Assembly (NCBI RefSeq): GCF_022846255.1
Contig: NZ_AP025682.1
Reading direction: 5' to 3' (one strand)
DNA: 64,000 bases
DNA from: Escherichia coli
Lineage (GTDB): Bacteria; Pseudomonadota; Gammaproteobacteria; Enterobacterales; Enterobacteriaceae
In this document: positions 1 to 64,000 of the stretch, piece by piece
Position numbering within the stretch: the stretch's first letter is position 1
How the letters are laid out: each line of letters opens with the position of its first letter
Made by a program: the position numbers and the translations under genes
Notes under the pieces: model-generated
What the model was told of the DNA's origin: nothing
Seen by the model: the letters and a program-made list of their open reading frames with translations, nothing else
The model's database searches: none

Positions 1-1160
<1,160 letters not shown>

Positions 1161-1180
<20 letters not shown>

Positions 1181-1802: not shown

Positions 1803-1815
1803 CAAGATTCACCCC

Positions 1816-2193: not shown

Positions 2194-2195
2194 CG

Positions 2196-2792: not shown

Positions 2793-2806
2793 TGCATTTA
2801 CATGCA
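2793..2806. promoter_or_regulatory. perfect palindrome TGCATTTACATGCA in AT-rich fhuE upstream region; candidate repressor (Fur-like) site
   Basis: Palindrome read directly from sequence about 85 bp upstream of the fhuE start; Fur regulation of fhuE is established knowledge, the site assignment is a guess. Confidence 0.25.
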
Positions 2807-2888
2807 AAATTATTCGCACACTAAATATAACCGCTCATCACCCTCCTCCGGCATGAGCCTGACGACAACATAAACCAAGAGATTTCAG

Positions 2889-5078: not shown

Positions 5079-5088
5079 ATAACACCTG

Positions 5089-5115
5089 TAAAAAAGGCAG
5101 CCATCTGGCTGCCTT
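5089..5115. terminator. hairpin GGCAGCC-atct-GGCTGCC with flanking A/T runs, between convergent fhuE and ptsG
   Basis: Stem-loop read from sequence; T-run follows on the minus strand (ptsG sense), weaker on plus. Confidence 0.6.
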
Positions 5116-5137
5116 AGTCTCCCCAACGTCTTACGGA

Positions 5138-6571: not shown

Positions 6572-6674
6572 AATTGAGAGTGCTCCTGAGTATGGGTGCT
6601 TTTTTTACGTTCTCACGCGTGGCAAGGGGGGAGTGCCTCGCCGTGTACAGGGCATCTAAGCGCCCTTTATTTAT
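6572..6674 (-). promoter_or_regulatory. ptsG mRNA 5' leader including ribosome-binding site (SgrS sRNA pairing region)
   Basis: Leader sequence read from the minus strand; SgrS targeting is established knowledge; the 5' boundary is approximate. Confidence 0.5.
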
Positions 6675-6865
6675 TACACAGAGTAAAATAATTCAGTGCC
6701 GATTTGTTTGACGGCTATCACGTTTCAACTTCAGATCATTGGAGAAGTTGCACATTTTGACAAAACATATGTCACAATATTTCAAACGTGGTTATTCACC
6801 GCCCGATTTTCGGCGGTGAACTTTACTCGTTTTAGCCATTAATTACGAGCTTTAAAAAAACTCAT

Positions 6866-7663
6866 TCAACGGATGGATTGAAGGCGGGAAGCGTCGATGT
6901 GAAACAGACGGGCGAAGTTATCGGTGGTTACCTGCGCCAGTTCTTCAACGGCAACACCTTTCAACACAGCCATGTATTCTGCAACGTCACGAACCATCGC
7001 AGGTTGATTCTCTTTTCCTCGATGCGGTACTGGCGCAAGGTAAGGTGAGTCAGTTTCCACCAGTAACCGATCCAGGGGGACATAACGCGCAGCATCGCGC
7101 AGTTGCTCCGCATTACGGAAGGTCACAATGCCGGAAAAGGAGATGTAAAATCCGAGATCCAGTAATTTGCCCGCCGTTTCTCTGTCCTCTGTAAAACAGT
7201 GTAGTACGCCACCGCAATCCGTCACTTTTTCTTCGCGCAGAATTGCCAGCGTATCGGCGCGGGCGTCACGGGTGTGGACGATAACCGGCTTGTTCAGTTC
7301 ACGACCAATCTGGATATGATGGATGAAGGACTCTTGCTGACGTACTTTAGTTTCCGGCGTGTAATAATAATCCAGCCCGGTTTCACCCAGCGCTACAACG
7401 CCCTCTTCTGCCGCCAGACGACGTAAATCTTCTACATCGTAGGGATCATTCTGGTTGAGTGGATGCACGCCACAAGAAAATACGACGTTGTCGCGTTCGC
7501 CTACCAGATCCCGCATGTGTAAATAACCCGGTAATGTTGTGGCGACTGCCAGACAAAATTTCACATCGCGTGCGGCGGCTTTCGCCAGAACGTCATCCAC
7601 GTCCTTATGCAAAGATTCATAATCCAGACCATCGAGATGGCAGTGTGAGTCGACTAAAAACAT
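6866..7663 (-). CDS. ycfH: TatD-family metal-dependent DNase/hydrolase
   Basis: Translation starts [11 protein letters not shown] (TatD-type metal-binding motif); start trimmed from the track ORF to the Met preceding this motif. Confidence 0.85.
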
Positions 7664-7673
7664 GATGTCTCTC

Positions 7674-8678
7674 TTAAAGATGAGGAACCGGTAGCACAAC
7701 GCCCGGTTGCAGGTAATGCTCAATACGCAGTAAAAGATCGGTGATGAGAAGCTCGCGGTTGATGCCTGTGACAGACATTAACTGTTCACGAATGTGGCAA
7801 ACATCCCCCAGTATAGCCTGCAGGCGCGAGGGAGAAAGATGGTTTGCCAGTTCGACGACCAGGCCCGGCACATCAACATTGGTCACCTGCGCAGCGCCAT
7901 GATGGCGTTTTAGCGCATCCATCAGCAACGTTGCCAGCCAGTGTAAACGTGCCGGAGCTTGTTCATGATTAAGGGCCGCTAGCAGCGAATACCAGTCGCC
8001 CGATTGCACGCTATATGCCAGCGCCTGACACAATGTTTCACGAGCCTGCCAGTTATCTCCCTGAAACAACGCCAGTGCCGCCCCAGGCGAACCGGCGCTT
8101 AAGCGCAATGCGGCAAGTAGTGCAGCCTGTGACATTGTCACTTCGCGTGAAAGCCAGGTCACGGCGTACTGTTCCGGCGGCGGCGCAAGGTAATGTAACC
8201 GACAACGACTACGTAATGTTGCCAGTAAACGTTCTGGCTCGCGGGTAGCAAGGAAAAACCACGTCTCTGCTGGTGGCTCTTCAAGCGTTTTCAGCAATGC
8301 GTTAGCCGCGGCGTCGGTTAGTAAGGCAGCATCGGTTACCCAGACAACTTTCGCACCACCTAAGCGTGCGTGCTCATTCAGCTTTTCGGTGACCTCACGT
8401 ACCGCATCAATGCCCAGCGCATTTTTCCCTTTTTCGGGAGCCAGGGTGTAGTAATCGGGATGTGTGCCAGCCTGCATCAACTGACATCCACGACAGTGAC
8501 CGCAACTTTTGTGGCCCTGCGGTTGTTGGCAGAGTAAATAACGGCTCAGGGCATAGATTAAAGCATCATCGCCCATGCCCGGTAACGCCTGAATGAGTAG
8601 CGCATGGTGACCTCTTCTGGCCTGATAGCTGGCTACCAGTTTTTCGAAATCAGGTCGTAACCATGGATACCATCTCAT
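7674..8678 (-). CDS. holB: DNA polymerase III delta-prime subunit
   Basis: 334-aa ORF; 4-bp overlap with tmk; conserved tmk-holB-ycfH order. Confidence 0.9.
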
Positions 8679-9316
8679 GCGTCCAACTCCTTCACCCAGT
8701 TGGTCACGGTAGTGCGGATTGCATCCATCACGGCCTCCAGCGGCTGGGTGGCATCAATGGTATGAATGCTTTTATCTTGTGCTGCCAGTTCCAGATAGCG
8801 GGCGCGGGTGCGATTAAAGAAATCGAATGACTCTTGCTCAATACGATCCAGCTCACCACGGGCGCGAGCACGTTTTAAGCCGACCTCTGGGGTGACATCA
8901 AGATAAAGCGTTAAGTCAGGGCGAAAATCCCCGAGAACAGCATCACGCAGTGTTGCCAGCATATGTTGGTCAATACCTCGTCCTCCACCCTGATAGGCTT
9001 GAGTAGAGAGATCGTGGCGATCGCCAATCACCCAGGTGCCGTTAGCCAGCGCAGGTTTGATGACCGTTTCTACCAGTTGAACGCGCGCGGCATAAAACAT
9101 CAGAACTTCGGCTTTATCGGTAATGACTTCATCGCCTACCGATTTGATATCCAGCACCAGGCTTCTTAACTTTTCGGCAAGTTGCGTACCGCCAGGTTCC
9201 CGAGTGAAAACCATGTCGCGGATACCCAGTTGCTCAAGCGTCTCAACCACCACGTTACGCGCGGTAGTTTTGCCTGCGCCTTCCAGCCCCTCAATGACGA
9301 TATACTTACTGCGCAT
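8675..9316 (-). CDS. tmk: thymidylate kinase
   Basis: 213-aa ORF with P-loop GLEGAGKTT near the N-terminus. Confidence 0.9.
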
Positions 9317-10328
9317 TTTTTTCCTTAAGCACTTTCAGATAATCCTGCACAGACTTGTTATGACTGGCAAGATTGGTATTAAACGTGTGACCACCTTTAC
9401 CATCGGCCACAAAATAGAGATACGGCGTTTTTGCCGGATGCGCAGCAGCCTTCAGCGAATCCGCCCCCGGCGTAGCTATTGCACCTGGCGGCAAACCGGT
9501 AATGGTATAGGTGTTATACGCTGTCGGCGTTTCCAGGTCTGCACGAGAAAGTTTGCCATTATAACGCTCTCCCATCCCGTAAATCACGGTCGGGTCGGTC
9601 TGCAGGCGCATACCAATGCGTAACCGGTTGATAAATACTGAGGCAACCTGATCGCGTTCACTGGCAACGGCGGTTTCTTTTTCGATAATTGATGCCATCG
9701 TCACCAACTGGTTTTTATCTTTATAAGGCAGACCGTCCGCACGCCCTTCCCAGGCGCTATCGACCGCTTTCACCATTTTCTTGTGCGCTCGCTTGAGTAA
9801 CGCGACATCGGTGGTATTGGCGGTATACATCCAGGTGTCTGGCCAGAACCAACCTTCAATCCACTCCGGGTTTTCCAGTTCAAGTGCCTGCGCTACGGTG
9901 GCGTACTTATCGTCGCTCAGCGTGTGCTTGATATACGGAGCCTCACGCAATTGCTTGAGGTAGTCGCTCAGACGCATCCCTTCTACCAGTCGCAGCGGGA
10001 ACTGTGCTTCTTTACCGCTTTCCAACAATTTCAGCATCTCGCGCACGGTCATCTGCGGTGTAAAGCGGTAAGTCCCGGCTTTAAAGTGAGAAAGATCCGG
10101 TTCGATACGCAGCAACCATTGAAAAACCCGTGGGCGATTGATGATCTTATCGGCATAAAGCTGTTCACCTAGCGCCAGACGTCCGGTCCCTGGCTTAAGG
10201 GTAAATATCGTCTCTTCTTTGATAAGCAATTTGCTGTCGGCAAGATGGCGAACCTTCCAGACGCCCACACCAGCGGCGATACACAGTACCACCAGCAATA
10301 ACAAGATTATCAATAACACTTTTTTCAT
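9306..10328 (-). CDS. mltG: endolytic murein transglycosylase MltG (YceG)
   Basis: 340-aa ORF with N-terminal transmembrane segment; overlaps tmk start by 11 bp. Confidence 0.85.
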
Positions 10329-10330
10329 GA

Positions 10331-11140
10331 CTAATTCGGGCGCTCACAAAGTGGGGCTAAATATTCATATAACGTTGCTGACGAAAAGGAGACATCGCCA
10401 CAGGCACGTACGGGCATCACTGGCATTAACGCATTACAAATAACCATCTCATCTGCCTGCAACGCCTCTTCCAGAGAGGCTTGCACTTCGACAAGCTGAT
10501 AAGAGGATTGTGCCAGCAAACGGATACAGAATTGTCGCATAATGCCGTTAACACCTGCCTGATCCAGTCGCGGCGTATAAACTACGTTGCCCTTCCGCCA
10601 GAACAAATTAGCCGCACAGCATTCCGTAACCCACCCTTCGCTGTCAAGGACCAGCGCCTCATCAGCGTTTGTCTGCTCAAGATGAGAGCGGATCAATACT
10701 TGCTCAAGCCGATTAAGATGTTTAATACCTGCAAGATGAGGATTGCGCCCCAGCCGCACCGGGCTTAGCGCCAACGTCATCCCTTCGTTACGCAAACGGT
10801 CGTAATGTGCAGGATAAGCCGTAACGGAGAGAATCCGCGTTGCCGGTCCACTGTTCAATGTGCTGTACCCTCGCCCGCCACTACCGCGACTGATCACCAC
10901 TTTCAGCACACCATTTTGCTGTTCTGCTGCCAGCGTTTTCATCTCTAGTTCAAGCTGAGGCCAGAAGTCACAGGAAATCATCAACCGCTGACAAGCATCC
11001 TGTAGTCGCTGGATATGCGCCGATAACAAACTGACTTTACCGTCGATAACTCTGGCGGTGGTAAAACAACCATCACCAAACTGCGTTGCCCGATCGCTTA
11101 CTGCCAGCGATTCCTGCTTATGACCGTTAATTAAGAACAT
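10331..11140 (-). CDS. pabC: aminodeoxychorismate lyase
   Basis: 269-aa ORF; synteny between fabF and mltG. Confidence 0.85.
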
Positions 11141-11211
11141 ACCGGCTCCTTATCAGAGAATTGTTAGTGTGGCAGCATGTTCACTACGGAACAAGTCGGA
11201 ATAAAAGCTAA

Positions 11212-11236
11212 GAAAAAAGGCCCGCAAGCGGACCTT
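11212..11236 (-). terminator. rho-independent terminator downstream of fabF
   Basis: Minus-strand hairpin GGTCCGC-tt-GCGGGCC followed by a T-run. Confidence 0.6.
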
Positions 11237-11259
11237 TTATAAGGGTGGGAAATGACAAC

Positions 11260-12531
<1,272 letters not shown>

Positions 12532-12588
12532 CTAGTGGGACAAAAAGATAAAACTCAGGCGGTCGAACGACCGCCTGGAGATGTTCAC

Positions 12589-12825
12589 TTACGCCTGGTG
12601 GCCGTTGATGTAATCAATGGCAGCCTGAACGGTGGTGATTTTCTCAGCTTCTTCGTCCGGAATCTCAGTATCAAACTCTTCTTCCAGAGCCATTACCAGC
12701 TCAACGGTGTCAAGAGAATCCGCGCCCAGGTCTTCAACGAAAGAAGCATTGTTGGTAACTTCTTCCTGCTTAACGCCCAGCTGTTCGCCGATAATTTTCT
12801 TAACGCGTTCTTCGATAGTGCTCAT
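12589..12825 (-). CDS. acpP: acyl carrier protein
   Basis: 78-aa [21 protein letters not shown]… with phosphopantetheine attachment motif [12 protein letters not shown]. Confidence 0.97.
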
Positions 12826-13035
12826 ACTCTTAAATTTCCTATCAAAACTCGCTTTCGCGATGGTTTTCGTAGTGTATAAAATGTTGAAAAATTTGCAACT
12901 AAATCCCGGCAGGTCTTACCACGATTTTACGTTATTTTGAGGCCTTACCCCCCAATAACGCAAATCATTTTGCACTAATTATTACTCATAACCACGCAGA
13001 CTGCGCGCAACATGAGCATTTTGTGCAAATCGCGG

Positions 13036-13770
13036 TCAGACCATGTACATCCCGCCGTTCACATGCAAAGTTTCACCCGTGATGTAAGCTGCTTCGTCGG
13101 ATGCCAGGAATGCAACCGCGTTGGCGATTTCCTGTGCGCCGCCGAGGCGACCCGCAGGAACCTGCGCCAGGATACCCGCACGCTGGTCATCGCTCAGCGC
13201 ACGTGTCATGTCCGTTTCAATAAAGCCCGGAGCAACAACGTTTACAGTAATACCGCGTGACGCAACTTCGCGCGCCAGTGATTTACTGAAGCCGATCAAG
13301 CCCGCTTTCGCCGCAGCGTAGTTGGCCTGACCGCCATTTCCCATGGTACCAACCACAGAACCGATAGTGATAATACGACCATGACGCTTTTTCATCATAG
13401 CGCGCATTACCGCTTTTGACAGACGGAAAACAGATGAAAGGTTGGTTTCGATAATATCGTTCCACTCTTCATCTTTCATTCGCATTAACAGGTTATCACG
13501 AGTGATACCGGCATTATTGACCAGGATATCCACTTCACCAAATTCTGCGCGAATTTTTTCCAGAACAGATTCGATAGATGCCGGGTCGGTCACATTCAAC
13601 ATCAGACCTTTGCCGTTGGCACCTAAATAATCAGTGATCGCCTGAGCGCCATTTTCACTGGTCGCAGTGCCGATAACTTTCGCGCCACGGGCTGCGAGCG
13701 TTTCAGCAATTGCGCGGCCAATTCCGCGGCTTGCACCGGTTACCAGTGCGATTTTTCCTTCAAAATTCAT
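13036..13770 (-). CDS. fabG: 3-oxoacyl-ACP reductase
   Basis: 244-aa SDR ORF with TGASRGIG cofactor-binding motif. Confidence 0.95.
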   Translation of the reverse strand: MNFEGKIALVTGASRGIGRAIAETLAARGAKVIGTATSENGAQAITDYLGANGKGLMLNVTDPASIESVLEKIRAEFGEVDILVNNAGITRDNLLMRMKDEEWNDIIETNLSSVFRLSKAVMRAMMKKRHGRIITIGSVVGTMGNGGQANYAAAKAGLIGFSKSLAREVASRGITVNVVAPGFIETDMTRALSDDQRAGILAQVPAGRLGGAQEIANAVAFLASDEAAYITGETLHVNGGMYMV

Positions 13771-13782
13771 GATTTTCCTCTT

Positions 13783-24889: not shown

Positions 24890-26315
24890 TAATGCCAGTC
24901 AGTTAAGCAACTGACTGGCTCTTTTTCGGGGCTGTGGGGTATTTCCAGGGCCTCTCCTTTACCACTCTCGGGAAGGCCCTTTCCCTTCTTGTCGGTAATT
25001 TCACAAGTTGTCCCATACTTGCAAGATCGCGCATCAGCTCCGGTATACGTCCCGGTGAAGCGCCCTGCAATGTCATCAGCATTCTCATCACCATTCCACA
25101 TGATTCTGAGAAACTCAGTTGATTCGGCCAGTAACCTTTCAGATGTTCCGCCATTTTAATCATCTGATATCTCACCAGATTATAAGCCAGTAAGACACCC
25201 CACAGCTCTTGCTCCACAAGCTCCGGTTTTTTACTTCTCAGCGTCAGCCTGCTCAGTTGCATCGTCTGTTTTATCTCCCTGTATCCCAGTTCGATTTCCC
25301 AGCGATGACTGTACAGATCCGCCATTTCTCCTCCGGGGAAGCGCATGGCGTCCGTCATCGACGTCAGCAGATGGCAGACTTTTCCTTTGCGCGTCACGGT
25401 CAGCAGGCGGGCTGTCACTTCATTTCCCAGTCCCGGCCACTTTTTTCGTGCCTGCGGGCTGGTTTTCAGCTTCACCAGATGATCGCCTTTACCCAGTTTT
25501 CTGATCTCTTCATATTGCGCTCCCTTTCTGAGAGGTATCATCCAGTGGCGGTGTTCTCCCGCCAGGCTCCAGGCATTTAACAGTCCCAGTGAGTAATAAC
25601 CTTTATCCATTAACGTCAGAGTGTTATCGCCGGTTTGTTCTATAAGTTGCTCAGCAAGCTCATTTTCGCTGTTCTTCATCGTGCCGAAGGCTGCAGCCGT
25701 CAGCAGATGGCTGGTCAGTTCCATCTGGCAGACCATTTTGACCTGCGGGTAGAGCGCCGGGTTCCCGGCATGTGTCTGGCGGGGGAAGGCTGCATCGTTC
25801 TCTGGTGTATCCGGTGTGCGCCAGAACACACCATCGATGGCCAGCAGGGTCAGGCCGCACCAGTGCGGATGCGGCGTGGCGTTATGCCAGAGCTGCGCTG
25901 TTTTCGTGAACACGCGGCGGACAGCCTCACTTCCCAGGCGCTGGCGGGCCTGAATAACGGCACTGGGGGCAACGAAGGGGCGATTGCCCGGCAGCATGAT
26001 GTCCAGGCGATTCACAATCTGGTGAAGAGGTTCTTTACGCTCAAGCGCCATGCCAACAATACACCAGACCATCATTTCGAGGGGAAGACGGCGCTTGCGT
26101 AGCGTTACAGTACCTGATTCGGCAAGGCAACGAGAGATGAGTTCGGGGTCGAGGTAATCCCCCAGAGAAGTCAGTGGGTTACGCAGAGAATCGTAACGGG
26201 ATACCAGATCAAGAGCCTGTCCAATGTGCATAAAAAAATCCGGAAACAAGTGAGCGTTTCCGGATTCTTACACAGCCACTGGATCGGTCAACTGATCCTT
26301 AACTGATCGGCATTA
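24890..26315 (-). mobile_element. IS4 insertion sequence, complete (1426 bp)
   Basis: 18-bp terminal inverted repeats TAATGCCAGTCAGTTAAG (24890-24907) and TAATGCCGATCAGTTAAG (reverse complement of 26298-26315), 16/18 identical; 11-bp flanking direct repeat; single long transposase ORF. Confidence 0.95.
24903..26231 (-). CDS. IS4 transposase
   Basis: 442-aa ORF starting [34 protein letters not shown]…, recognised as the IS4 transposase; start trimmed from the 448-aa track ORF. Confidence 0.93.
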
Positions 26316-26326
26316 CAGCCTAGCTG
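26316..26326. repeat. IS4 target-site duplication, right copy (CAGCCTAGCTG)
   Basis: Identical to 24879-24889. Confidence 0.9.
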
Positions 26327-26340
26327 GGGGTTTTCTGTGC

Positions 26341-26376
26341 ACAAAAATGCCCGCCCCGGCGATCCCGGAGCGGGCA
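26341..26376 (-). terminator. rho-independent terminator of the flgBCDEFGHIJKL/flgKL transcripts
   Basis: Minus-strand hairpin GCCCGCTCCGG-gatcg-CCGGGGCGGGC followed by a T-run, about 40 bp after the flgL stop. Confidence 0.7.
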
Positions 26377-26417
26377 GACAAAACATACCCAGTTTCATGA
26401 TATGTTTTAAAGCGAGC

Positions 26418-27371
26418 TTATTTGTTGAGCTGGAAGAGCGACAATCCCTGCATATCGGTAAATGCTTTATACGATGCCTGCAATGCCGTTTGCTGCATGA
26501 TGTAAGATGAAATAGTTGCATTCCAGTCCACATCAACCAGATCGCTCATCTGCTGCGTTTGCCCTAAAGCGCGATCGCTACCTAATGAATCAAGCGACTC
26601 CAGTTCGTTCAGCTGCGTGCCTAATTCCGCGCGAACAGTCAGCACATTGTTCAGCGAGTTTTTCAGTCCGCGGTTGGTTTTATCCAGTGCCGCAGCGGCG
26701 GTTTCTTTATCCGCTTCGCTATCCGCGACCGGCGTTTTCAGGGCTGCGATGGCGCTATCCAGCATGGCAAAAAGATTGGTTTCAGAAGCGCTACCGTCTG
26801 GTTCCGCTACCGCGTTGCTGGTAATACTGTCGAAAATTTTGTCGCCCGTATGTCCTATCACCATCGAACGCGAAGCATCGACCTGTTGTTTAATACTTTC
26901 TGTTCCGCCGACATAATCACCGTCAGCCTCACTAAACGGCGCAGTCTCTGTTTTATAACCGGCAAAAATGTAGCGCCCGTTACCGTCAGTGGTGTTCGCC
27001 AGATTCAGTAACTGATCACGAAGCCCCTGAATATCCGTAGCCAGTGAGGCCCGGTCATCGTCACTCAAGGTGCCATTGCTGGCGTAGACAATTTTTTCCT
27101 GAGCATTCTGGATAGCAGTGGTGACCTGGCTAAGCACACTCTCTTCCAGTGACACTTTTTGAGTGGCGAAAGTACGCGCCAGCGTGTACTGGCTGTTTTG
27201 CGCCTGTGCCTGGGAGAGAACAACAGCTTGTGATGCAGCAATGGGATCGTCTGAAGGGTTAACGACTCGCTTACCCGTCGACATCTGTTCGCCGTACTTC
27301 ATCCATTCTGCCTGAGAATTGGTGATGCCGCGCATGTTTTGCTGGTACATCATCTGGGTACTGAAACGCAT
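26418..27371 (-). CDS. flgL: flagellar hook-associated protein 3
   Basis: 317-aa ORF with flagellin-like N- and C-terminal helical segments; last gene of the flg cluster. Confidence 0.92.
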   Translation of the reverse strand: MRFSTQMMYQQNMRGITNSQAEWMKYGEQMSTGKRVVNPSDDPIAASQAVVLSQAQAQNSQYTLARTFATQKVSLEESVLSQVTTAIQNAQEKIVYASNGTLSDDDRASLATDIQGLRDQLLNLANTTDGNGRYIFAGYKTETAPFSEADGDYVGGTESIKQQVDASRSMVIGHTGDKIFDSITSNAVAEPDGSASETNLFAMLDSAIAALKTPVADSEADKETAAAALDKTNRGLKNSLNNVLTVRAELGTQLNELESLDSLGSDRALGQTQQMSDLVDVDWNATISSYIMQQTALQASYKAFTDMQGLSLFQLNK

Positions 27372-27382
27372 TTTATCTCCCC

Positions 27383-29026
27383 TTAGCGAATGTTAATCAG
27401 CGCATCAAAAATCGCGTTTGCCGTCTGCAGAACCTGCGCATTCGCAAGGTAATACTGCTGAAAACGTTGCAGATTTCCATACTCCTCATCGAGATTGACA
27501 CCGGAAATCGACTGCTGCTGATTGGAAAGCTGCGTCACCACATTCCCTTGCGTGGTGCTACTGGTTTTCAACGTCGCGGTTTTATTACCGATATCACTCA
27601 CTAACGAGGCATAAGCGTCGTTAAAGGATTTCGCTCCGCCCACCGTTTTACTGTTGCTTTGCAGATCGAGCAGGGCCTGACCGTTGCGGTTGTCGCTATC
27701 ACCCGCATCTTCTGCGCTCGCCATGGCGATTTTCGCTTCGTCGGTGATTAATACATCCATGTTGACGATGGCGTCACTTACCGGTTTCAGTGTGAAGCTG
27801 TCGTTAACGGCAGGCGTTCCTGTAAACGTCAACTCCAGACCATCAAATGCCACTTTACCGTTGGCATCCGGCGTCACCGTAAAAGTGGTATTACTGGCAA
27901 GGCGGGTGACCTGCCACTGATTATTATCGAACGAGATTTTGTAATCTGTCGCCAGTACCGCGGAGGCATCAGTTACCGTTGCACCGATCGCAACGTCACC
28001 TTTGTTTTTCGTGTTTTGCAGAACCGTGGGCTTACCGATAGCAAAGAAATCTTCACCGGCAACGCCGTTAGCATCAAATCCGGCTTTGTGTTGGGTGTTG
28101 AAAGCTTCGGCAAATGCCAGCGCCAGTTGTCCAAGCGTATTACGCGTCTGGTCAAGATCCTGAGAACGGAATGTCAGAATGCCGCCCAGCGACCCGGTAT
28201 TCAGTAATTTTTCAGGGATCTCAATATTGCCTGCCGTCCCATCAACATAAGCGACAGTCGTACGAGAAGGGTCGGCGCTGGAAGGAACTGCCGCCAGCTG
28301 CCGCGCCGTACTTCCCTGAACCAGTGAGTAGCCATTGGCCATCGTGATGTTATAAGTGCCACCATCCTGAACGCTGACTTCTACGCCAACAATCTGGTTT
28401 AATTCGCTCACCAGTTGATCGCGTTGATCCAGCAGATTGTTAGGTGACGCCCCTGCCCCCACGCCTGTCAGGCGGGAGATCTGATCGTTCAGGCTGGCGA
28501 TTTGTTTAGCGTAATTGTTGATCTGATCAACGCTGGCACCTATCGCGATATTGACCTGTTTGTCCTGGTCGCGCAGATATTGATCGGTGGTTTTAAACTG
28601 ATTCACCAATCCTTCTGATTTCCCAATCAGCGCCTGGCGCGCTGCCGGATCTTCCGCGTTACTCACCAGCGTTTGCAGGCTGGTGAAGAAATCCTGCATC
28701 TGTGTTGCCAGCGAAGAGGTACTGGTGGAGAGCATATTGTCGATTTTCGACATCTGCTCATAGCGGGCGGTCAGGCCGCTACTTTGCGTCTGCGCAGCAC
28801 GTAACTGGTTGGTAATAAACGCATCATACTCACGCTGCACACCAGAAACGTAGACGCCATTGCCAACCCAGCCGCCAGCGCCCAACGTGCTATTGGCCTG
28901 CGCCATAATAGTGGTTTGGCGGGTATATCCGGCAACGTTATAGCTGGAGATATTATTACTTGCCGTATTTAACGCCGCCTGGGCCGCGTTCAGTCCGCTC
29001 ATGGCGTTATTGATCAAGCTGGACAT
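27383..29026 (-). CDS. flgK: flagellar hook-associated protein 1
   Basis: 547-aa ORF MSSLINNAMSGLNAAQAALNTASNNISSYNVAGYTRQ…. Confidence 0.95.
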   Translation of the reverse strand: MSSLINNAMSGLNAAQAALNTASNNISSYNVAGYTRQTTIMAQANSTLGAGGWVGNGVYVSGVQREYDAFITNQLRAAQTQSSGLTARYEQMSKIDNMLSTSTSSLATQMQDFFTSLQTLVSNAEDPAARQALIGKSEGLVNQFKTTDQYLRDQDKQVNIAIGASVDQINNYAKQIASLNDQISRLTGVGAGASPNNLLDQRDQLVSELNQIVGVEVSVQDGGTYNITMANGYSLVQGSTARQLAAVPSSADPSRTTVAYVDGTAGNIEIPEKLLNTGSLGGILTFRSQDLDQTRNTLGQLALAFAEAFNTQHKAGFDANGVAGEDFFAIGKPTVLQNTKNKGDVAIGATVTDASAVLATDYKISFDNNQWQVTRLASNTTFTVTPDANGKVAFDGLELTFTGTPAVNDSFTLKPVSDAIVNMDVLITDEAKIAMASAEDAGDSDNRNGQALLDLQSNSKTVGGAKSFNDAYASLVSDIGNKTATLKTSSTTQGNVVTQLSNQQQSISGVNLDEEYGNLQRFQQYYLANAQVLQTANAIFDALINIR

Positions 29027-29059
29027 GGAGGTTCCTTATAAGCCTTCAATTACAGAGTA

Positions 29060-29086
29060 TTATCGGCAGCGACCCGCCGGACTTGA
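29060..29086 (-). promoter_or_regulatory. sigma28 (FliA) class-3 promoter for flgKL (-35 TCAAGTCC, 11-bp spacer, -10 GCCGATAA)
   Basis: GCCGATAA is a perfect match to the sigma28 -10 element; the -35 matches 5 of 8 positions. Confidence 0.55.
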
Positions 29087-29091
29087 GTTAT

Positions 29092-30033
29092 TCAGAACAG
29101 ATTATCAATGTTCATACTGTAGGTTTTGCTCACTTTGTCGCTTATCGATTTCATCTGCTGAATCATGTTGGTGAGTTTGCGGGCATAGTGAGGATCGGTG
29201 GCATAGCCCGCGTCCTGTAGGGCCTGTGCCCCCTGCTCCGCACTCACGGCGGTCGTCACGGCAGCGTAGCGCGGATTACGTGTTAACAGCCCAACGTAAT
29301 CCGACAATGCTTCCAGATACGAGCTGTAGACCCGAAATTTCGCTTTTACTTTCTTCGCTTCGCCGTTTTCATATTCAGTCGTGGTGATTTCAGTGACTGG
29401 CCCTTTCCAGTTGCCAGAGGCTTTGACGCCAAACAGGTTGTAACTCGGCTCGCCGTTTTCGCGGCGGATTTGCCGTTGTCCCCAGCCAGATTCCAGCGCC
29501 GCCTGAGCGAGGATCAAATGATGTGGCACACCGCTTTGCTGGCTTGCCAGTTGGGCGGGCAGTGAGAGTTGCGCGAGGAATGCTTTACTGTTACCCGGCA
29601 ACGAATCATCGTAGTTACGTGGTACGGCCTTTTGCACCAGCTGAGAAAGCGCCTGATTTTGATAACGCACCACAGTTTCGAGCGGGAATTTCATCGGTGC
29701 TGCTGGCGTGGGCTCCTCTGGCAATGGTTGTTCTGGCGTCATCTGTTTAACCATCATCTCTGCAAGCCCCAGACCTTTGCCCGCCGTCATCTGTTGGGCA
29801 ATCTGCTGGTCATACATACTGGTATACAGGCGAGTGTGCTCGCTGCTGAACAGGCCATCTTTTGGTAAAGCGTCGCGCATGCTTTTCAACATCATCTGCA
29901 CGAACATCCCTTCCACCTGGCGGGCCACCGGACGGATATTTGCCGCTGGATCTTCGCCAGCTTTCGCCTTTAGTTCGTTGAGTGATTGCGCATCCCAGGC
30001 CGCACTTGCCAGTAGTTTGCTGTCGCTGATCAT
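29092..30033 (-). CDS. flgJ: flagellar rod assembly protein / muramidase FlgJ
   Basis: Start trimmed to [26 protein letters not shown]… (313 aa); ATGA overlap with flgI stop. Confidence 0.9.
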   Translation of the reverse strand: MISDSKLLASAAWDAQSLNELKAKAGEDPAANIRPVARQVEGMFVQMMLKSMRDALPKDGLFSSEHTRLYTSMYDQQIAQQMTAGKGLGLAEMMVKQMTPEQPLPEEPTPAAPMKFPLETVVRYQNQALSQLVQKAVPRNYDDSLPGNSKAFLAQLSLPAQLASQQSGVPHHLILAQAALESGWGQRQIRRENGEPSYNLFGVKASGNWKGPVTEITTTEYENGEAKKVKAKFRVYSSYLEALSDYVGLLTRNPRYAAVTTAVSAEQGAQALQDAGYATDPHYARKLTNMIQQMKSISDKVSKTYSMNIDNLF

Positions 30034-35966: not shown

Positions 35967-36383
35967 TTAATTTCCGCTCTGTAAAACGTTCATCATGCCT
36001 TTGATCTGCCCGCTCAACGCGCTAAGGCTCATCTGGTATTGCAGGCTGTTATCGGCAAACTGGGTGCGTTCGCGATCCATATCGACAGTATTACCGTCAA
36101 GCGAAGGCTGGTCCGGAATACGGTATTGCAGTTCTGCGGAAGGAGGCGTCAGCGCCTGCGCCGGAATGTGTTTCGTTGAGGTCATCGTCAGAGCAACCAC
36201 ACTGGTTGCATCCCGTCCACGTTGCATGACTTTTTTAAGTTCACTGGCAAAATCGATATCGCGCGCCTGATAACCAGGGGTATCGGCATTGGCGATGTTT
36301 GCTGCCAGCACTTCCTGACGCTGGGCGCGCAGATTGAGCGCCTCTTGTTGAAAACGTAAGGCGGCGTCGAGCTTATCGAGCAT
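35967..36383 (-). CDS. flgB: flagellar proximal rod protein
   Basis: 138-aa ORF; first gene of the flgB operon. Confidence 0.95.
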
Positions 36384-36537
36384 ATCTCCTCCGCAGGTAT
36401 CAAAATTCGGCCATCAGCTTAAATGCCTTTACGCGCGCGTTATCGGCGGAATAAACGCAAAATGGGTCGCTATTTATGCCGTTGATGGTCATTGCGGACA
36501 GGTACAATTCACGTTGTAGAAATGGCTGGGGACGAAA
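36384..36537. promoter_or_regulatory. divergent flgB / flgA class-2 (FlhDC-dependent) promoter region
   Basis: Divergent arrangement seen in sequence; FlhDC dependence is established knowledge, individual sites not mapped. Confidence 0.5.
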
Positions 36538-37197
36538 ATGCTGACAATAAAACGTAGCGTGGCGATCATCGCGATACTGTTCAGTCCGTTAAGTACGGCG
36601 AGCAATCTCACATCGCAATTGCACAACTTTTTTAGCGCCCAACTCGCGGGGGTAAGTGATGAGGTTCGTGTTTCTATTCGTACAGCACCCAATCTGCTAC
36701 CGCCGTGCGATCAGCCATTGCTTTCGATGAGCAATAATTCCCGTCTGTGGGGCAATGTGAATGTGTTGGCACGCTGCGGTAACGACAAACGATATTTACA
36801 GGTTAATGTGCAGGCCACAGGAAATTATGTGGTTGCCGCAATGCCCATTGTGCGGGGAGAAAAGCTGGAAGCTGGCAATGTCAAACTGAAACGCGGACGG
36901 CTGGACACCCTGCCACCGCGTACGGTGCTGGATATCAATCAACTTGTTGATGCCGTTAGCCTGCGCGATATATCACCCGATCAACCTATCCAGTTAACCC
37001 AGTTTCGCCAGGCATGGCGGATAAAAGCGGGACAACGCGTCAACGTGATCGCCAGCGGTGATGGGTTTAGCGCCAACGCAGAAGGTCAGGCGCTGAACAA
37101 TGCAGCCGTCGCACAAAATGCGCGGGTGCGCATGGTATCGGGACTGGTGGTCAGCGGCGTTGTTGATGCAGATGGGAATATTCTTATAAACCTGTAA
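36538..37197 (+). CDS. flgA: flagellar P-ring assembly chaperone
   Basis: 219-aa ORF with signal peptide. Confidence 0.92.
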   Translation: MLTIKRSVAIIAILFSPLSTASNLTSQLHNFFSAQLAGVSDEVRVSIRTAPNLLPPCDQPLLSMSNNSRLWGNVNVLARCGNDKRYLQVNVQATGNYVVAAMPIVRGEKLEAGNVKLKRGRLDTLPPRTVLDINQLVDAVSLRDISPDQPIQLTQFRQAWRIKAGQRVNVIASGDGFSANAEGQALNNAAVAQNARVRMVSGLVVSGVVDADGNILINL

Positions 37198-37202
37198 GCT
37201 GT

Positions 37203-37229
37203 TAAAGATTACCCGTTCCTTGCCGATAA
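37203..37229 (+). promoter_or_regulatory. sigma28 (FliA) class-3 promoter for flgMN (-35 TAAAGATT, 11-bp spacer, -10 GCCGATAA)
   Basis: Near-perfect match to the consensus TAAAGTTT-N11-GCCGATAA, 43 bp upstream of flgM. Confidence 0.8.
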
Positions 37230-37272
37230 ATAAGCAACACATGATAAAAGCGCCCTCAATGAGGAATAAACC

Positions 37273-37566
37273 ATGAGTATTGATCGCACTTCGCCTCTGA
37301 AGCCTGTAAGCACCGTTCAACCGCGCGAAACCACTGACGCGCCGGTAACGAACACCCGGGCGGCAAAAACAACAGCCTCCACCAGCACCAGTGTGACGTT
37401 AAGCGACGCGCAAGCAAAACTGATGCAACCCGGCAGCAGTGATATCAATCTTGAACGTGTCGAAGCGTTAAAGCTGGCGATTCGTAACGGTGAACTAAAA
37501 ATGGACACTGGCAAAATTGCCGATGCGCTGATCAACGAAGCGCAGCAAGACTTGCAGAGTAACTGA
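37273..37566 (+). CDS. flgM: anti-sigma-28 factor
   Basis: 97-aa [25 protein letters not shown]…. Confidence 0.95.
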
Positions 37567-37570
37567 TCGT

Positions 37571-37987
37571 ATGACGCGTCTTGCAGAGATCCTCGACCAG
37601 ATGTCCGCTGTGCTTAACGATCTCAAAACGGTAATGGATCAAGAGCAGCAACATCTCTCTATGGGGCAGATCAACGGCAGCCAGTTGCAATGGATTACAG
37701 AACAAAAAAGCTCACTGCTGGCGACGCTGGATTACCTCGAACAGTTACGCAGGAAAGAACCCAATACAGCAAATAGCGTTGATATTAGTCAACGCTGGCA
37801 GGAAATTACTGGCAAAACGCAGCAACTACGCCAACTGAATCAACATAACGGCTGGTTACTGGAAGGACAGATTGAACGCAATCAACAGGCGCTGGAAATG
37901 TTGAAACCGCATCAGGAACCGACGCTGTATGGGGCGAACGGTCAGACCTCAACAACCCATCGCGGCAGTAAAAAGATTTCGATCTGA
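37571..37987 (+). CDS. flgN: flagellar export chaperone for FlgK/FlgL
   Basis: 138-aa ORF immediately after flgM. Confidence 0.92.
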   Translation: MTRLAEILDQMSAVLNDLKTVMDQEQQHLSMGQINGSQLQWITEQKSSLLATLDYLEQLRRKEPNTANSVDISQRWQEITGKTQQLRQLNQHNGWLLEGQIERNQQALEMLKPHQEPTLYGANGQTSTTHRGSKKISI

Positions 37988-38026
37988 AGATTAACTCCGG
38001 CCTGCACTGCGGGCCGGAATGTATCG

Positions 38027-39649
<1,623 letters not shown>

Positions 39650-53997: not shown

Positions 53998-58180
<4,183 letters not shown>

Positions 58181-58462
58181 TCAGCACACTGGCTCATGGA
58201 TTAAGCACCTGATTGCAACCGTTTTCACTTTCCGTGCTTCTCCTAAAGACAGAAGCATCGACTTCGTGTAGGGTTTGCCAGCAAATTTATTTATCAACCG
58301 TCTTACAGACGCTTCCATTCTGGTTAGTGGTAGCGATGATGCTATGCATAAAAACCTTGAAGCCTGCGCCTGGCGCGGTCAGGTCGGTGTCGCTATGGCA
58401 ACAAGCCTAAAGGCATAACCCGACAGGGATAAGACGAAAAATCCGAGATTAGTTAACCATAT

Positions 58463-59620
58463 ATGAATCCAGTACCCGCGCAACGTGAATATTTCCTCGA
58501 CTCCATCCGCGCCTGGCTGATGTTGTTAGGGATCCCTTTTCATATTTCTTTAATCTATTCGAGCCATACATGGCATGTGAATAGCGCCGAACCGTCATTG
58601 TGGCTGACCCTTTTTAATGACTTCATCCACTCGTTCCGCATGCAGGTATTTTTCGTTATATCCGGGTACTTTTCCTACATGCTTTTTTTACGCTATCCCT
58701 TGAAAAAATGGTGGAAAGTACGTGTCGAACGTGTAGGTATCCCGATGTTAACAGCCATCCCCCTACTGACATTACCGCAATTTATTATGCTGCAATACGT
58801 CAAAGGGAAAGCGGAAAGTTGGCCTGGGCTATCATTGTATGACAAATATAATACGTTGGCCTGGGAATTAATATCACACCTGTGGTTTTTACTGGTGTTA
58901 GTAGTCATGACGACGCTGTGCGTATGGATATTTAAACGCATCAGAAATAATTTAGAAAATTCTGATAAAACGAATAAAAAATTCTCGATGGTAAAACTAT
59001 CGGTGATTTTTTTGTGCCTCGGCATCGGTTATGCGGTAATAAGAAGAACGATTTTTATTGTGTATCCGCCCATTCTGAGTAATGGCATGTTCAATTTTAT
59101 TGTCATGCAAACGCTATTTTATTTGCCGTTCTTTATCCTAGGCGCACTGGCTTTCATTTTCCCTCATCTTAAAGCCTTGTTTACCACGCCGTCTCGTGGC
59201 TGTACCCTTGCAGCAGCATTGGCGTTTGTCGCTTATTTACTCAACCAGCGCTATGGCAGTGGCGATGCCTGGATGTACGAAACCGAGTCGGTGATCACCA
59301 TGGTCCTCGGTCTGTGGATGGTGAATGTGGTCTTCTCCTTTGGCCACCGTTTGCTTAACTTCCAGTCAGCGCGGGTGACTTATTTTGTTAACGCATCGCT
59401 GTTTATCTATCTGGTTCACCACCCGTTAACGCTGTTTTTCGGCGCATACATTACACCGCACATCACCTCCAACTGGCTTGGTTTTCTCTGTGGCCTGATA
59501 TTCGTTGTAGGGATCGCGATAATTCTGTATGAAATTCATTTACGCATCCCGTTACTGAAGTTTTTGTTCTCTGGTAAACCGGTTGTTAAGCGTGAGAACG
59601 ATAAAGCACCAGCCCGTTAA
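58463..59620 (+). CDS. opgC: periplasmic glucan succinyltransferase (membrane acyltransferase-3 family)
   Basis: 385-aa polytopic ORF divergent from opgGH. Confidence 0.88.
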
Positions 59621-59627
59621 GCCACGC

Positions 59628-61058
59628 TTATAATAACCATTCCACGGGCAATATCGACGCCAGTCTGACCATAACCCGCTTCCAGAAACTGGTGGCGGGT
59701 TCTTTTTTGAGAATAATCTCTTTCTTTGCATGACGATCAACCCAGTTGATCCGTCCCCACCTGTCCAGACGGAGCTGCCAGGCCGCATCATACTGGCTCT
59801 GAATAAAGCGTTTATCAATTAACTGTGCCAACGTTTCGCTCTCTATCACGAAGCCCATTTCAGTATTGAGCAATGTCGAACGTGGATCGAAATTGAAAGA
59901 GCCGATAAACACCGTTTTACCATCGATGCTAAAGGTTTTAGCATGCAAGCTGGCACCGGAATTACCGGTTATGCCGCGATCGTGTAACGTACTACTTTGT
60001 TCACGCGTCGGCTTGAGTTCATATAATTCCACGCCATAGCGGAGCAATTTTTTGCGCCAGCGCGCGTATCCGGCATGGACGACAGCAACATCGTTAGCGG
60101 CAAGAGAATTGGTTAGGATCGCAATCTTTACCCCTTTTCTCACCATCCGTAAGAGTTGCGCCACACCTGCACGTGTCGGTACAAAATAGGAAGAGATAAT
60201 ATCGATGCGTTCACTGGGTGAGCCCATGATATCGAACAGGCGCTGCGGTAACAGTGAATGCCGTTTTGCCTTGCCCTCCCCTTTCGCCGGATCATCACTT
60301 AATAAACGTGTTTTCGCCCAGATAAGCGACAACGTTCCATCAACCAGATGATTTATAAACGGACTGGATTCCATTTTGCGTAAATAACGATGCGTCATGG
60401 CATCGTCATGCCAGGATGCAGGTAACTCGATGCGATCCGCCATTTCACCTTCCGGGACATCCAGCACCTGCTGTAAGGGTGAAACCGATTTGCAATACCA
60501 ATAGCGGGCGAAATCATCGGCAACGTCCTCTACCACGGGTCCTATTGCCATGACATCTAAATCCGAAAAAAGTGGCTCTTCCCCTGCACCAAAATAGGCA
60601 TCACCAATATTTCGTCCCCCTACCAGGGTAACCACGCCATCGACAGTGAAACTTTTATTGTGCATACGGCGATTGAGACGGGAAAAGTCGGTGATATAAC
60701 CAAGCGGACGCAGCAAGCGAAACGAGAAAGGATTAAAAAGCCGGACTTCAATGCGGGGATGACTGTCAAGCAAGCGTAAAATGTCGTCAAGTCCGGGCGT
60801 ATTGTTGTCATCCAGCAACAAACGGACGCGAACGCCACGCTTTGCTGCGGCTAACAGGGCGGAAAAGAGTAACCGACCCGACATATCGTCCTGCCAGATG
60901 TAATACTGAACATCCAGCGTATGCTCTGCCATTTCGGCCAGACGATACCGGGCGGCAAACGCATCCAGACTTTTCTCCAGAGGGAAAAGACCACACTGAC
61001 CGGGATGTTGCGAACACAGTGGCAGCACCGCGCTCGCCAGCCGGGGCAAATCATTCAT
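59628..61058 (-). CDS. clsC: cardiolipin synthase C (phospholipase D family)
   Basis: Two HxK(x)4D motifs (…HNKSFTVDG… and …HAKTFSIDG…); start codon uncertain, ATG at 61058 chosen, alternatives at 61106/61109. Confidence 0.85.
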
Positions 61059-61584
61059 CTCCTTGTTGGGTAAGGAGTCTTTCGTAGAGGTGGGCGTTTT
61101 CTTCATCATAACAGACAAAGTATACCTGTTCGGGTAAAGCGTGACGGGTAATAAATTCTGAAACGGTTTTTACTGCGATTTCAGCCGCTGCCGCACGAGG
61201 GTAACCATAAACCCCAGTACTGATTGCAGGAAAAGCCACTGACGTATAGCTGTTTGCCGCCACCAGTCGTAGGCTATTGAGATAGGCATCCTGCAAAAGC
61301 TGGTCTTCGTTTTGTTCACCACCACGCCAGACTGGCCCGACGGTGTGCACTACGGCTTTAGCGGGAAGATCGCCTGCAAGCGTAATAACGGCATGCCCCG
61401 TAGGGCAATCGCCCTGCTGTTGCCTGACTTTTAAACAGGCATCCAGCAGCGCCGGACCCGCTGCGCGATGAATGGCCCCATCGACGCCGCCGCCTCCCAT
61501 TAATGACGGATTAGCCGCATTCACAATCACATCAACGGCCAGTTTGGTAATATCACCCTGCACAACATGAATACGCGTTTTCAT
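61051..61584 (-). CDS. ymdB: macrodomain O-acetyl-ADP-ribose deacetylase YmdB
   Basis: 177-aa [42 protein letters not shown]… (macro domain). Confidence 0.9.
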
Positions 61585-61678
61585 AACGCCTCCTTACACC
61601 TTCTTGTTTCTTAAGTGTACAGCAGGCTTTTTGGTTAAATCGCATTTTTCTGCTCAGCAAGGTGAGTTGTTCAGAAAC

Positions 61679-62058
<380 letters not shown>

Positions 62059-62059
62059 C

Positions 62060-62443
<384 letters not shown>

Positions 62444-62501
62444 ATTCTTCTCCCGAAAAAAAACAGGGCTTGCGCCCTGTTTCTTTAATATAGAGGATGT
62501 A

Positions 62502-62960
62502 TTAGTACTGATGAGCGGTCGCGTTGTTACCAAAGCCAACCTGAGTGACGTTAACGCTGGAGTTAGATGCAGTCTGGTCAACAGCAGCACCGTTACCGCC
62601 ACCGAACTGTTTAACTGTCATATGAGAGTCTTTACCGTTCCACTGATCAAGAGTGGCGCTGTTACCAAAGCCACGCTGAGTCAGATCGATTGAGCTGTCA
62701 TCTGAGCCCTGACCAACATCTGCACCGTTACCACCACCATGCTGGGTAATAGTAAGATCAGAGTTACGAGCATCAGCTTGCAGAGCAAGTGCAGAGTTAC
62801 CACCACCGTACTGATAAATATTCAGCTCTGAATTCGGGCCGCTGTTATTACCGCCACCACCGTGGTTACCGCCACCGCCGCCGTACTGAGGAACAACACC
62901 TGCCAGAGCGCTACCGGAGAATACGATTGCTGCAATTGCTGCTACTTTTAAAAGTTTCAT
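62502..62960 (-). CDS. csgA: major curlin subunit CsgA
   Basis: ORF MKLLKVAAIAAIVFSGSALA… followed by five imperfect Ser-x5-Gln-x-Gly-x-Gly-Asn-x-Ala amyloid repeats. Confidence 0.95.
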   Translation of the reverse strand: MKLLKVAAIAAIVFSGSALAGVVPQYGGGGGNHGGGGNNSGPNSELNIYQYGGGNSALALQADARNSDLTITQHGGGNGADVGQGSDDSSIDLTQRGFGNSATLDQWNGKDSHMTVKQFGGGNGAAVDQTASNSSVNVTQVGFGNNATAHQY

Positions 62961-63000
62961 GTAAAACCCCCATCGGATTGATTTAAAAGTCGAATGGAAA

Positions 63001-63456
63001 TTAACGTTGTGTCACGCGAATAGCCATTTGCGACTGTCTCTGCACTACAATTGCCGTTTTTTGAGTACCATACTGTGTAATATTTGCTTTATTACCAGAA
63101 CCTTTCTGGATAATCATCGCAGTATTACCATAAGCACCTTGCGAAATACTGGCATCGTTGGCATTGCCCGCCTGATCAATATATGCAAGGTTATAATCTC
63201 CTGTCTGGTCAATCTTTGCCCGGTTGCTACTACCTTCTTGCGCAACAACCGCCAAAAGTTTTGAGCCTCCCTGCCGTAACTGAGCACTATTATTAGTCCC
63301 AGCTTGACCAATTATGGCTGCCTGATTAAATGAAGACTTACTCAATTCATTTACCGCGAAGTTATATTCTGAATTAGCTAAATCATAACCTGCTGCGGCT
63401 GCAATCCCAGGCGCACCCAGTATTGTTAACATCATAAATAACAATTTGTTTTTCAT
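63001..63456 (-). CDS. csgB: minor curlin subunit / nucleator CsgB
   Basis: Start trimmed to MKNKLLFMMLTILGAPGIAAA… (151 aa); curlin repeats. Confidence 0.93.
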   Translation of the reverse strand: MKNKLLFMMLTILGAPGIAAAAGYDLANSEYNFAVNELSKSSFNQAAIIGQAGTNNSAQLRQGGSKLLAVVAQEGSSNRAKIDQTGDYNLAYIDQAGNANDASISQGAYGNTAMIIQKGSGNKANITQYGTQKTAIVVQRQSQMAIRVTQR

Positions 63457-64000
63457 GTTGTCACCCTGGACCTGGTCGTACATTTAAGAAATTAAATCAT
63501 TTCAACTTGGTTGTTAACGCAACCTGTATTTTGTTAACGCTGCGTTACGATGGAAAGTATGTCTGCGGAAATATTTTTAATAACTCACCCGCGCGTTGTA
63601 TTTTTCTTTTTTTGTTCATACCAAAGTATTAAAACCCACGTAAATACGCTGTTATCTACGCAAAAAAATATTTTGTTTTCTTTTAAATCTCCGTTTTCCG
63701 CAATCAAAAATCACCAGACAGCCATTCTTCTTGCCCGTCGCTGATTGCTGCGATATGTCTTGCGCACAAGCCGTGACAAACCTCGTCTTTTTGCAGTAAA
63801 AAATTGTCCACGGAGGTGTGGAGAAAAAACAACAACGTTTTACATGACGAAAGGACTACACCGAAATATTTTTTATATGCATTATTAGCAAGTTAGCACC
63901 ATTTGTATGATTTTTTAAAATTGTGCAATAAAAACCAAATGTACAACTTTTCTATCATTTCTAAACTTAATAAAACCTTAAGATTAACATTTCAATATAA
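63457..64000. promoter_or_regulatory. AT-rich csgBAC promoter and csgB-csgD intergenic control region (csgD lies beyond the window end)
   Basis: Location upstream of csgB seen in sequence; dense regulation of this intergenic region is established knowledge, individual sites not mapped. Confidence 0.6.

Follow-up and report, generated by a model that had tools for sequence, protein, structure and literature searches.

Sigma-28 motifs upstream of flgM and flgK in an Escherichia coli chromosomal segment very probably are the class 3 promoters of flgMN and flgKL

The question raised by this flagellar locus is whether two sequences resembling the sigma-28 (FliA) promoter consensus, one upstream of flgM and the other upstream of flgK, are promoters, and whether the second is the weaker of the two, as an earlier note on the same DNA had proposed. 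The stretch analysed, which we call the window, comprises 64,000 nucleotides of the E. coli chromosome. Its flgA-flgN segment is matched in 5,424 of 5,426 complete E. coli genomes, with the best match (99.6%) in strain LF82. Transferred annotation gives the gene order nagZ ... fab cluster ... rne, flgLKJIHGFEDCB (minus strand), flgA-flgM-flgN (plus strand), murJ ... csgBA. All flg open reading frames in the window are intact, and the identities of FlgA, FlgM, FlgN, FlgK and FlgL were confirmed by NCBIfam equivalog models. On the plus strand, flgM (37273-37566; TIGR03824) and flgN (37571-37987; NF012003) are also named by the RefSeq annotation of LF82, the DNA of which is 99.6% identical; on the minus strand lie flgK (27383-29026; NCBIfam FlgK) and flgL (26418-27371; NCBIfam FlgL).

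The sigma-28 consensus is TAAAGTTT-N11-GCCGATAA, in which the -10 sequence is a composite of an extended element and a core. For the aer promoter, the CGA core was placed at -11 to -9, and -32T and -30A were found to be critical, with -28 less so (PMC2859248). Direct reading of the plus strand upstream of flgM revealed a -35 octamer, TAAAGATT (37203-37210), that matches the consensus at seven of eight positions, an 11-nt spacer, ACCCGTTCCTT (37211-37221), and a -10 octamer, GCCGATAA (37222-37229), that matches at eight of eight, CGA core included. The near-perfect FliA consensus that had been claimed at 37203-37229 is thus found at exactly those coordinates, with TAAAGATT-N11-GCCGATAA carrying one mismatch as a whole. 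This flgMN motif lies in a gap of 75 nt that opens after the flgA stop codon (37195-37197) and closes at the flgM ATG (37273), and it is correctly oriented toward a late flagellar gene, with 43 nt separating the end of the -10 octamer from the ATG. The flgKL site on the minus strand consists of the -35 octamer TCAAGTCC (29086-29079), an 11-nt spacer (29078-29068) and a second copy of GCCGATAA (29067-29060), again a perfect -10 with its CGA core. The -35 octamer matches TAAAGTTT at five of eight positions and holds all three mismatches of the site, as the earlier description of 29060-29086 (perfect -10, poorer -35) had it, coordinates included. This site too is correctly oriented toward a late flagellar gene, the flgK ATG (29026) lying 33 nt beyond the end of the -10 octamer. 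Since the -35 begins 5 nt past the flgJ stop codon (29094-29092), it is free of coding constraint. T1 and A3 of the -35, the counterparts of -32T and -30A, are present in both the flgM and the flgK octamers.

We searched the whole window for TAAAGTTT-N11-GCCGATAA with up to three mismatches, and the search returned exactly the flgM and flgK sites. Chance would give 0.47 matches of this quality per window (0.48 by analytic calculation), and two or more turned up in 10 of 100 shuffles. At that rate the flgK site falls short of significance when judged by its consensus match only; what makes it real is its position and its conservation. With one mismatch or none, the expectation falls to about 0.0015 per window, so that the flgM match is significant by itself. 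To rank the sites, we used a position weight matrix that left out flgM and flgK and drew on the other 50 FliA ChIP-seq motifs of Fitzgerald et al. 2014 (Table 2). Among 127,946 window positions, this matrix ranked flgM first (25.4 bits) and flgK second (18.3 bits), the 99.99th percentile being 12.6 bits. When the matrix was restricted to 23 strong sites, flgM was again first (27.9 bits) and flgK was fourth (16.3 bits), below two intragenic near-hits. One near-hit, TACAGAATTGTCGCATAATGCCGTTAAC, lies at 10525-10552 (plus strand; 18.0 bits), antisense within pabC, and another, TCAACAATTTATCAGGCTGGCCGATGAC, at 413-386 (minus strand; 17.0 bits), at the end of thiK and 41 nt upstream of the nagZ ATG. 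Both score on a par with weak genuine FliA sites, and neither is among the 52 K-12 FliA ChIP-seq sites.

The octamer GCCGATAA occurs 10 times in the window, compared with 2.0 expected occurrences. We considered this excess as a sign of additional sigma-28 promoters and rejected it, as eight of the copies are without a -35 and score at most 13 bits: among the 10 copies, only those of flgM and flgK have a -35 with at least five of eight matches at an 11-nt distance, while the other eight have one to four. The octamer alone is therefore not diagnostic, with 10 copies and two promoters. One copy, at 36447-36440 on the minus strand and 57 nt ahead of the flgB ATG, was examined as a candidate third sigma-28 promoter. 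It was rejected because its -35 matches at four of eight positions; moreover, it is absent from the 52 K-12 ChIP sites, and FliA overexpression did not rescue flgB in K-12. This copy (36440-36447) abuts an inverted repeat resembling an FlhDC box, AAATAGCG...CGTTTATT, near the mapped position of the K-12 FlhDC ChIP peak (~36472), and it looks like a -10 look-alike inside the class 2 control region.

We next asked how both sites have fared across the Enterobacteriaceae. One genome per species was scanned for relatives of FlgM, giving 80 loci with flanks of up to 10 kb. The flgM-upstream set held 79 loci with 66 distinct sequences, the window being one of the loci, and was aligned on GCCGAT as anchor; no locus whose flgM-upstream sequence was long enough lacked it. 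When the loci were anchored on the -10, the -35 aligned without gaps in all of them, so that the 11-nt spacing is fixed in 79 loci. Among the 66 distinct sequences, the -35 reads TAAAGATT in 44, TAAAGAAT in 11, TAAAGGTT in 7, TAAAGAAA in 3 and TAAAGATA in 1, with TAAAG invariant throughout, and the -10 reads GCCGATAA in 37 and GCCGATAG in 23. Information per position amounts to 1.80 bits in the -35 and 1.82 bits in the -10, as against 0.95 bits in the spacer, of which there are 47 distinct versions, and 0.8-0.9 bits in the flanks. The flgK-upstream set, in which the window is one of 44 loci and 40 sequences are distinct, behaved similarly: TCAAGT in the -35 is invariant, the C at position 2 included, the 11-nt spacing is fixed, and the -10 is GCCGATAA in 34 of the 40 distinct sequences and GTCGATAA in the remaining six. 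Here the octamers hold 1.74 and 1.92 bits per position and the spacer, in 38 distinct versions, 0.56 bits. When the E. coli-derived matrix was applied to whole loci from 78 other species, the flgM-upstream site came first in 70 and second in eight. An opposite-strand TCAAGT site ranked third or better in 54 of the 57 long loci. Octamers that are kept at a fixed spacing around a free spacer have the look that would be expected of a functional two-element promoter. The free spacer sequence in these alignments also fits cryo-EM findings on the E. coli sigma-28 initiation complex at the tar promoter, in which the contact between sigma-4 and the -35 is comparatively weak and the beta' zinc-binding domain compensates by contacting the spacer backbone non-specifically.

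Both sites correspond to FliA-bound motifs in K-12. FliA ChIP-seq yielded the motif TAAAGATTACCCGTCCCTTGCCGATAAA for flgMN, with a fold-above-threshold of 48, and the motif TCAAGTCCGGCGGGTCGCTGCCGATAAT for flgKL, with a value of 47, the motif centres being at 1129409 and 1137556 of NC_000913.2, respectively (Fitzgerald, Bonocora & Wade 2014, Table 2, PMC4183435). Alignment with MG1655 revealed that the flgKL 28-mer of the window is identical to that of K-12 (28/28), as is the entire sequence from the flgJ stop codon to the flgK ATG. The flgMN 28-mer is identical at 27 of 28 positions; the exception is spacer base 37217, which is C in K-12 and T in the window, and this is the sole difference in the whole flgA-flgM intergenic region. 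Strain LF82 has T at this position, like the window. The view that the sites represent expected biology was therefore borne out, as they are the known FliA-bound motifs of K-12 flgMN and flgKL. Sigma-28 regions from an independent ChIP-chip study also cover both sites (SigF_9, 1129111-1129610; SigF_10, 1137178-1137740; PMC3923258).

Expression data from K-12 point in the same direction, to a degree that varies with the study. Deletion of fliA lowered mRNA 6.9-fold for flgM, 5.5-fold for flgK, 4.9-fold for flgL and 4.6-fold for flgN, and overexpression of fliA raised flgM, flgN, flgK and flgL about 2-fold (PMC1935009). In an flhD deletion strain of K-12, expression of flgM and flgK was restored by fliA overexpression. 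However, in a motile K-12 strain the effect of fliA deletion was modest and not significant, with flgM falling from 451 to 318 and flgK from 318 to 138 (PMC4183435), so that the sigma-28 promoters of flgM and flgK contribute little under some conditions. The sequence match, the rank within the window, the identity to K-12-bound sites and the conservation are direct observations on the present DNA; FliA binding and FliA dependence in the present strain are carried over from this literature.

The proposal that the flgK site is weaker stood in part. It holds for the consensus match and for the matrix score, which is 7 bits lower than that of flgM, but not for occupancy in K-12 (47 compared with 48); the response to fliA deletion is similar, and all 44 species have TCAAGT in the -35. 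Because of this invariance, TCAAGT is better regarded as a conserved variant than as decay. Other FliA-bound sites starting with TCAA include those of modA, fliL and ybhK (Fitzgerald et al. 2014, PMC4183435). We treat the flgK TCAAGT as a conserved functional variant, for which a lower output is only putative.

Transcription starts had been proposed to lie 7-10 bp past GCCGATAA, and for flgM the published data speak on both sides. Romilly et al. 2020 constructed flgM fusions described as '+1 to 105', with 23 codons, and their primers EHO-714 and MHO-240 start the 5'UTR at AACACATGATAAAAGCG (PMC7549644). The start of this 5'UTR, AACACATG, corresponds to window position 37236, 7 nt past the -10 octamer, which is indirect support for the proposal. 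The sigma-28 start of flgMN in the present strain would accordingly lie at 37236-37237 (plus strand) with a 5'UTR of 36-37 nt, as inferred from these primers; the aer numbering would put it 6 nt past the octamer. The AAC at the 37236 start point is conserved across genera. Against the proposal, the TSS-seq datasets of Kim 2012 and Cho 2014 contain a single flgM start, at K-12 position 1129417, with 14 and 21 reads, respectively, which Cho 2014 observed in conditions E, S and H and assigned to sigma-70 (PMC3923258). In the window this position is 37207, where TAAAG of the flgM -35 has its G, and it would give a leader of 66 nt; at -12 to -7 relative to it lies TAAGCT (37195-37200), which includes the flgA stop codon. 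These two related datasets contain no start downstream of either octamer and none for flgK. In the supplements of Ettwiller 2016 and of the SMRT-Cappable-seq study, which are possibly incomplete, neither the expected coordinates nor the gene names gave a match, and we found no paper in the open literature that maps the flgK start. We suspect little FliA activity in the cultures that Kim 2012 and Cho 2014 used, and the missing sigma-28 start in their data is weak negative evidence. Noise or processing may account for the 37207 start, or flgM may have a third promoter.

The leaders of both transcripts were also inspected for RNA structure. Structure z-scores were +0.75 for the flgM 5'UTR with early coding sequence and -0.21 for the flgK leader, and significant structure is thus absent from both by this measure. 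RNAalifold across 28 genera gave only an invariant 4-bp CCUC/GAGG helix without covariation. This element, CCUC-N3-GAGG at 37254-37264 (plus strand), surrounds the Shine-Dalgarno sequence and is invariant in 28 of 28 genera, with only the first loop base varying; the helix is absent from the minimum-free-energy fold of the E. coli leader, and its CCCUC half is strictly conserved. The class 3 flgM leader of Escherichia (window 37236-37272) is about 17 nt shorter than that of most Enterobacteriaceae. The distance from the G of the -10 to the flgM ATG is 51 nt in the window and 65-74 nt elsewhere, four Buttiauxella loci also being short, and Escherichia is without the GC-rich hairpin of variable sequence that is found in Salmonella, Citrobacter, Enterobacter and other genera.

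In K-12, flgMN and flgKL are also read through from the FlhDC-dependent flgA and flgB promoters, forming overlapping operons. These class 2 promoters lie in the divergent flgA-flgB intergenic region (36384-36537), to which the K-12 FlhDC ChIP peak at 1130152 maps (about window 36472). A terminator scan of 36300-38200 on the plus strand found none, and hence none between flgA and flgM; a scan of 26100-29400 on the minus strand found none between flgJ and flgK and returned a single site past flgL, a 12-bp stem at 26376-26348. The absence of terminators at flgA-flgM and flgJ-flgK is consistent with the overlapping operons reported in K-12. Since class 2 read-through reaches both operons, the sigma-28 promoters would be a late, FlhDC-independent addition rather than the sole source of transcript. 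A non-canonical K-12 FlhDC site, 1104400 at (csgC)ymdABC, maps to window ~62224 inside csgC and upstream of ymdA, which brings to two the listed K-12 FlhDC ChIP-seq sites that fall within the window.

The unit served by the flgK promoter runs from 29026 to 26341 on the minus strand and comprises flgK, flgL, FlgO and the terminator stem. FlgO is an Hfq-bound sRNA from the flgL 3'UTR, the levels of which are sigma-28-dependent (PMC10578931). Alignment of the K-12 ncRNA flgO (b4826) placed it at ~26418-26341 (minus strand) in the window, and since FlgO is a product of the flgL 3'UTR with sigma-28-dependent levels, the flgK promoter is a plausible source of it. Compared with K-12, the FlgO homologue has three T-to-C changes in the terminator stem-loop, of which by eye at least two turn G-U into G-C pairs. 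Its T-tract is TTTTTGTG in the window and TTTTTTTG in K-12, and the sequence downstream is wholly divergent.

Between rne (20073-23258, plus strand) and the FlgO/flgL terminator lie about 3.1 kb (23259-26340), compared with 195 bp in K-12 and LF82. The additional DNA contains a DUF1778/TacA-like antitoxin and GNAT toxin pair (23346-24175, plus strand), IS200C (tnpA 24307-24813, minus strand; Rfam STnc490 match at 24772-24895) and IS4 (transposase 24906-26249, minus strand), with an IS4 end, TAATGCCGATCAG, at ~26315, about 30 nt beyond the FlgO terminator. K-12 is without IS4, IS200C and the toxin-antitoxin pair in the corresponding position downstream of flgL/FlgO. Of 5,426 E. coli genomes, 685 cover at least 80% of the antitoxin-toxin segment, and the whole rne-flgL insert arrangement reaches 80% coverage in no complete E. 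coli genome. When three window segments were compared with the 5,426 complete RefSeq E. coli genomes, the best identities were 99.1-99.6%, and the best-matching strain changed from E2348/69 (1-16500) to LF82 (36400-38100) to E7-1N7 (58000-64000). This suggests that the window belongs to a lineage without a representative among complete genomes, or that it is a recombinant mosaic.

Taking these results together, we are about 95% confident in identifying the two sites as flgMp and flgKp, which serve the E. coli flagellar regulon as class 3 promoters. One alternative is that one or both motifs are chance consensus matches without promoter function. The statistics leave some room for it, given the 0.47 matches expected at up to three mismatches, the 10% of shuffles with two or more, and the over-representation of GCCGATAA (10 compared with 2). 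However, the expectation for the flgM match is ~0.0015, both sites lie in short intergenic gaps in the correct orientation and 33-43 nt from a start codon, the elements and their spacing are kept across 44-79 species whose spacers have diverged, and FliA binds in K-12 at sequences that are identical (flgK) or differ by one spacer base (flgM). Conservation and ChIP data effectively refute chance, to which we assign a barely perceptible likelihood. A different view of flgM alone is that its functional promoter is of the sigma-70 type, with a start at 37207 and TAAGCT as candidate -10, and that the sigma-28 motif is secondary or competing. In its favour, 37207 is the only flgM start in Kim 2012 and Cho 2014, Cho assigned it to sigma-70, and TAAGCT is at -12 to -7 from it. 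The read counts are low (14 and 21), however, a simple sigma-70 scan found no plus-strand promoter at TAAGCT/37207, and the hexamer in E. albertii is TAAGCA, with the final T lost. FliA occupancy, FliA-dependent expression and deep conservation all go with the sigma-28 motif, and a sigma-70 and a sigma-28 promoter of flgM need not rule each other out. We consider this view very improbable.

Somewhat less improbable, though still unlikely, is that the motifs are intact but silent, the strain belonging to a non-motile lineage in which flhDC, fliA or another flagellar gene has been inactivated elsewhere and the promoters are a relic. The insertion sequences IS4 and IS200C adjoin the flg cluster, identity to the three segments examined exceeds 99.6% in none of the complete E. 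coli genomes, and fliA and flhDC lie outside the 64-kb window (E. coli fliA is ~0.87 Mb from the flg locus in K-12 coordinates; PMC4183435). On the other hand, all 14 flg open reading frames are full length, the window bears no sign of decay, and both promoters with their flanks are essentially identical to those of motile K-12. At a level of likelihood slightly above this, and still doubtful, is a combined possibility that extends the preferred reading: the flgM region would have mutually exclusive sigma-28 and sigma-70-type (37207) promoters, and the flgK TCAAGT would be a selected sub-consensus setting. Were the former true, sigma-70 and sigma-28 holoenzymes would compete over expression of the anti-sigma factor; were the latter true, the timing or strength of hook-junction protein synthesis would be tuned.

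If the two sites are class 3 promoters, as we favour, they would be expected to act as follows. FliA-RNA polymerase would read the -35 octamer with sigma region 4 and the composite -10, GCCGATAA (extended -10 plus CGA core), with sigma regions 2 and 3, the spacer being fixed at 11 bp, and transcription would start about 6-8 nt past the -10 octamer. As long as the hook-basal body is unfinished, FlgM would keep FliA in check; the finished structure would export FlgM, whereupon both promoters would fire. The flgMN promoter would produce a short-leader flgMN mRNA, providing negative feedback on FliA and a supply of the FlgN chaperone, and the flgKL promoter would produce flgKL mRNA for the hook-filament junction proteins, from the 3' end of which FlgO would be processed. 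Two experimentally validated sigma-28 promoters were located to the base from sequence alone, and the locus thereby serves as a positive control. The comparison also corrects the label "weaker" for flgK, which by published data is as fully occupied as flgM and whose variant -35 has been conserved.

Comparison with known sigma-28 systems places both sites well within the family. The E. coli tar promoter (TAAAGTTT-N11-GCCGATAA) has the same octamers and an 11-bp spacer, and flgM differs from it only at -35 position 6, where T is replaced by A. However, tar is purely class 3, falling from 251 to 0 in a fliA deletion, whereas flgM and flgK belong to the dual class 2/3 type and respond only slightly (PMC4183435). 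Salmonella enterica arizonae and diarizonae have TAAAGATT-N11-GCCGATGA upstream of flgM, in the orthologous position and with the same architecture, and arizonae has TCAAGTCC-N11-GCCGATAA upstream of flgK, as in the window. The Salmonella flgM site differs in that its -10 ends in GA rather than AA and its 5'UTR is ~16 nt longer, with the extra GC hairpin. The class 3 promoters of Salmonella flgMN and flgKL were reportedly dissected by Wozniak and Hughes in 2008 and by Kutsukake and Ide in 1995. The sigma-D promoters of Bacillus subtilis and other promoters of the sigma-28 family have the -35 TAAA and the -10 GCCGATAT; they belong to the same sigma family and have the same CGA core, but the organism and the regulon hierarchy differ. 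Among these systems, flgMp and flgKp are already known as textbook class 3 promoters of the E. coli/Salmonella cascade, and the sites in the window do not depart from the family.
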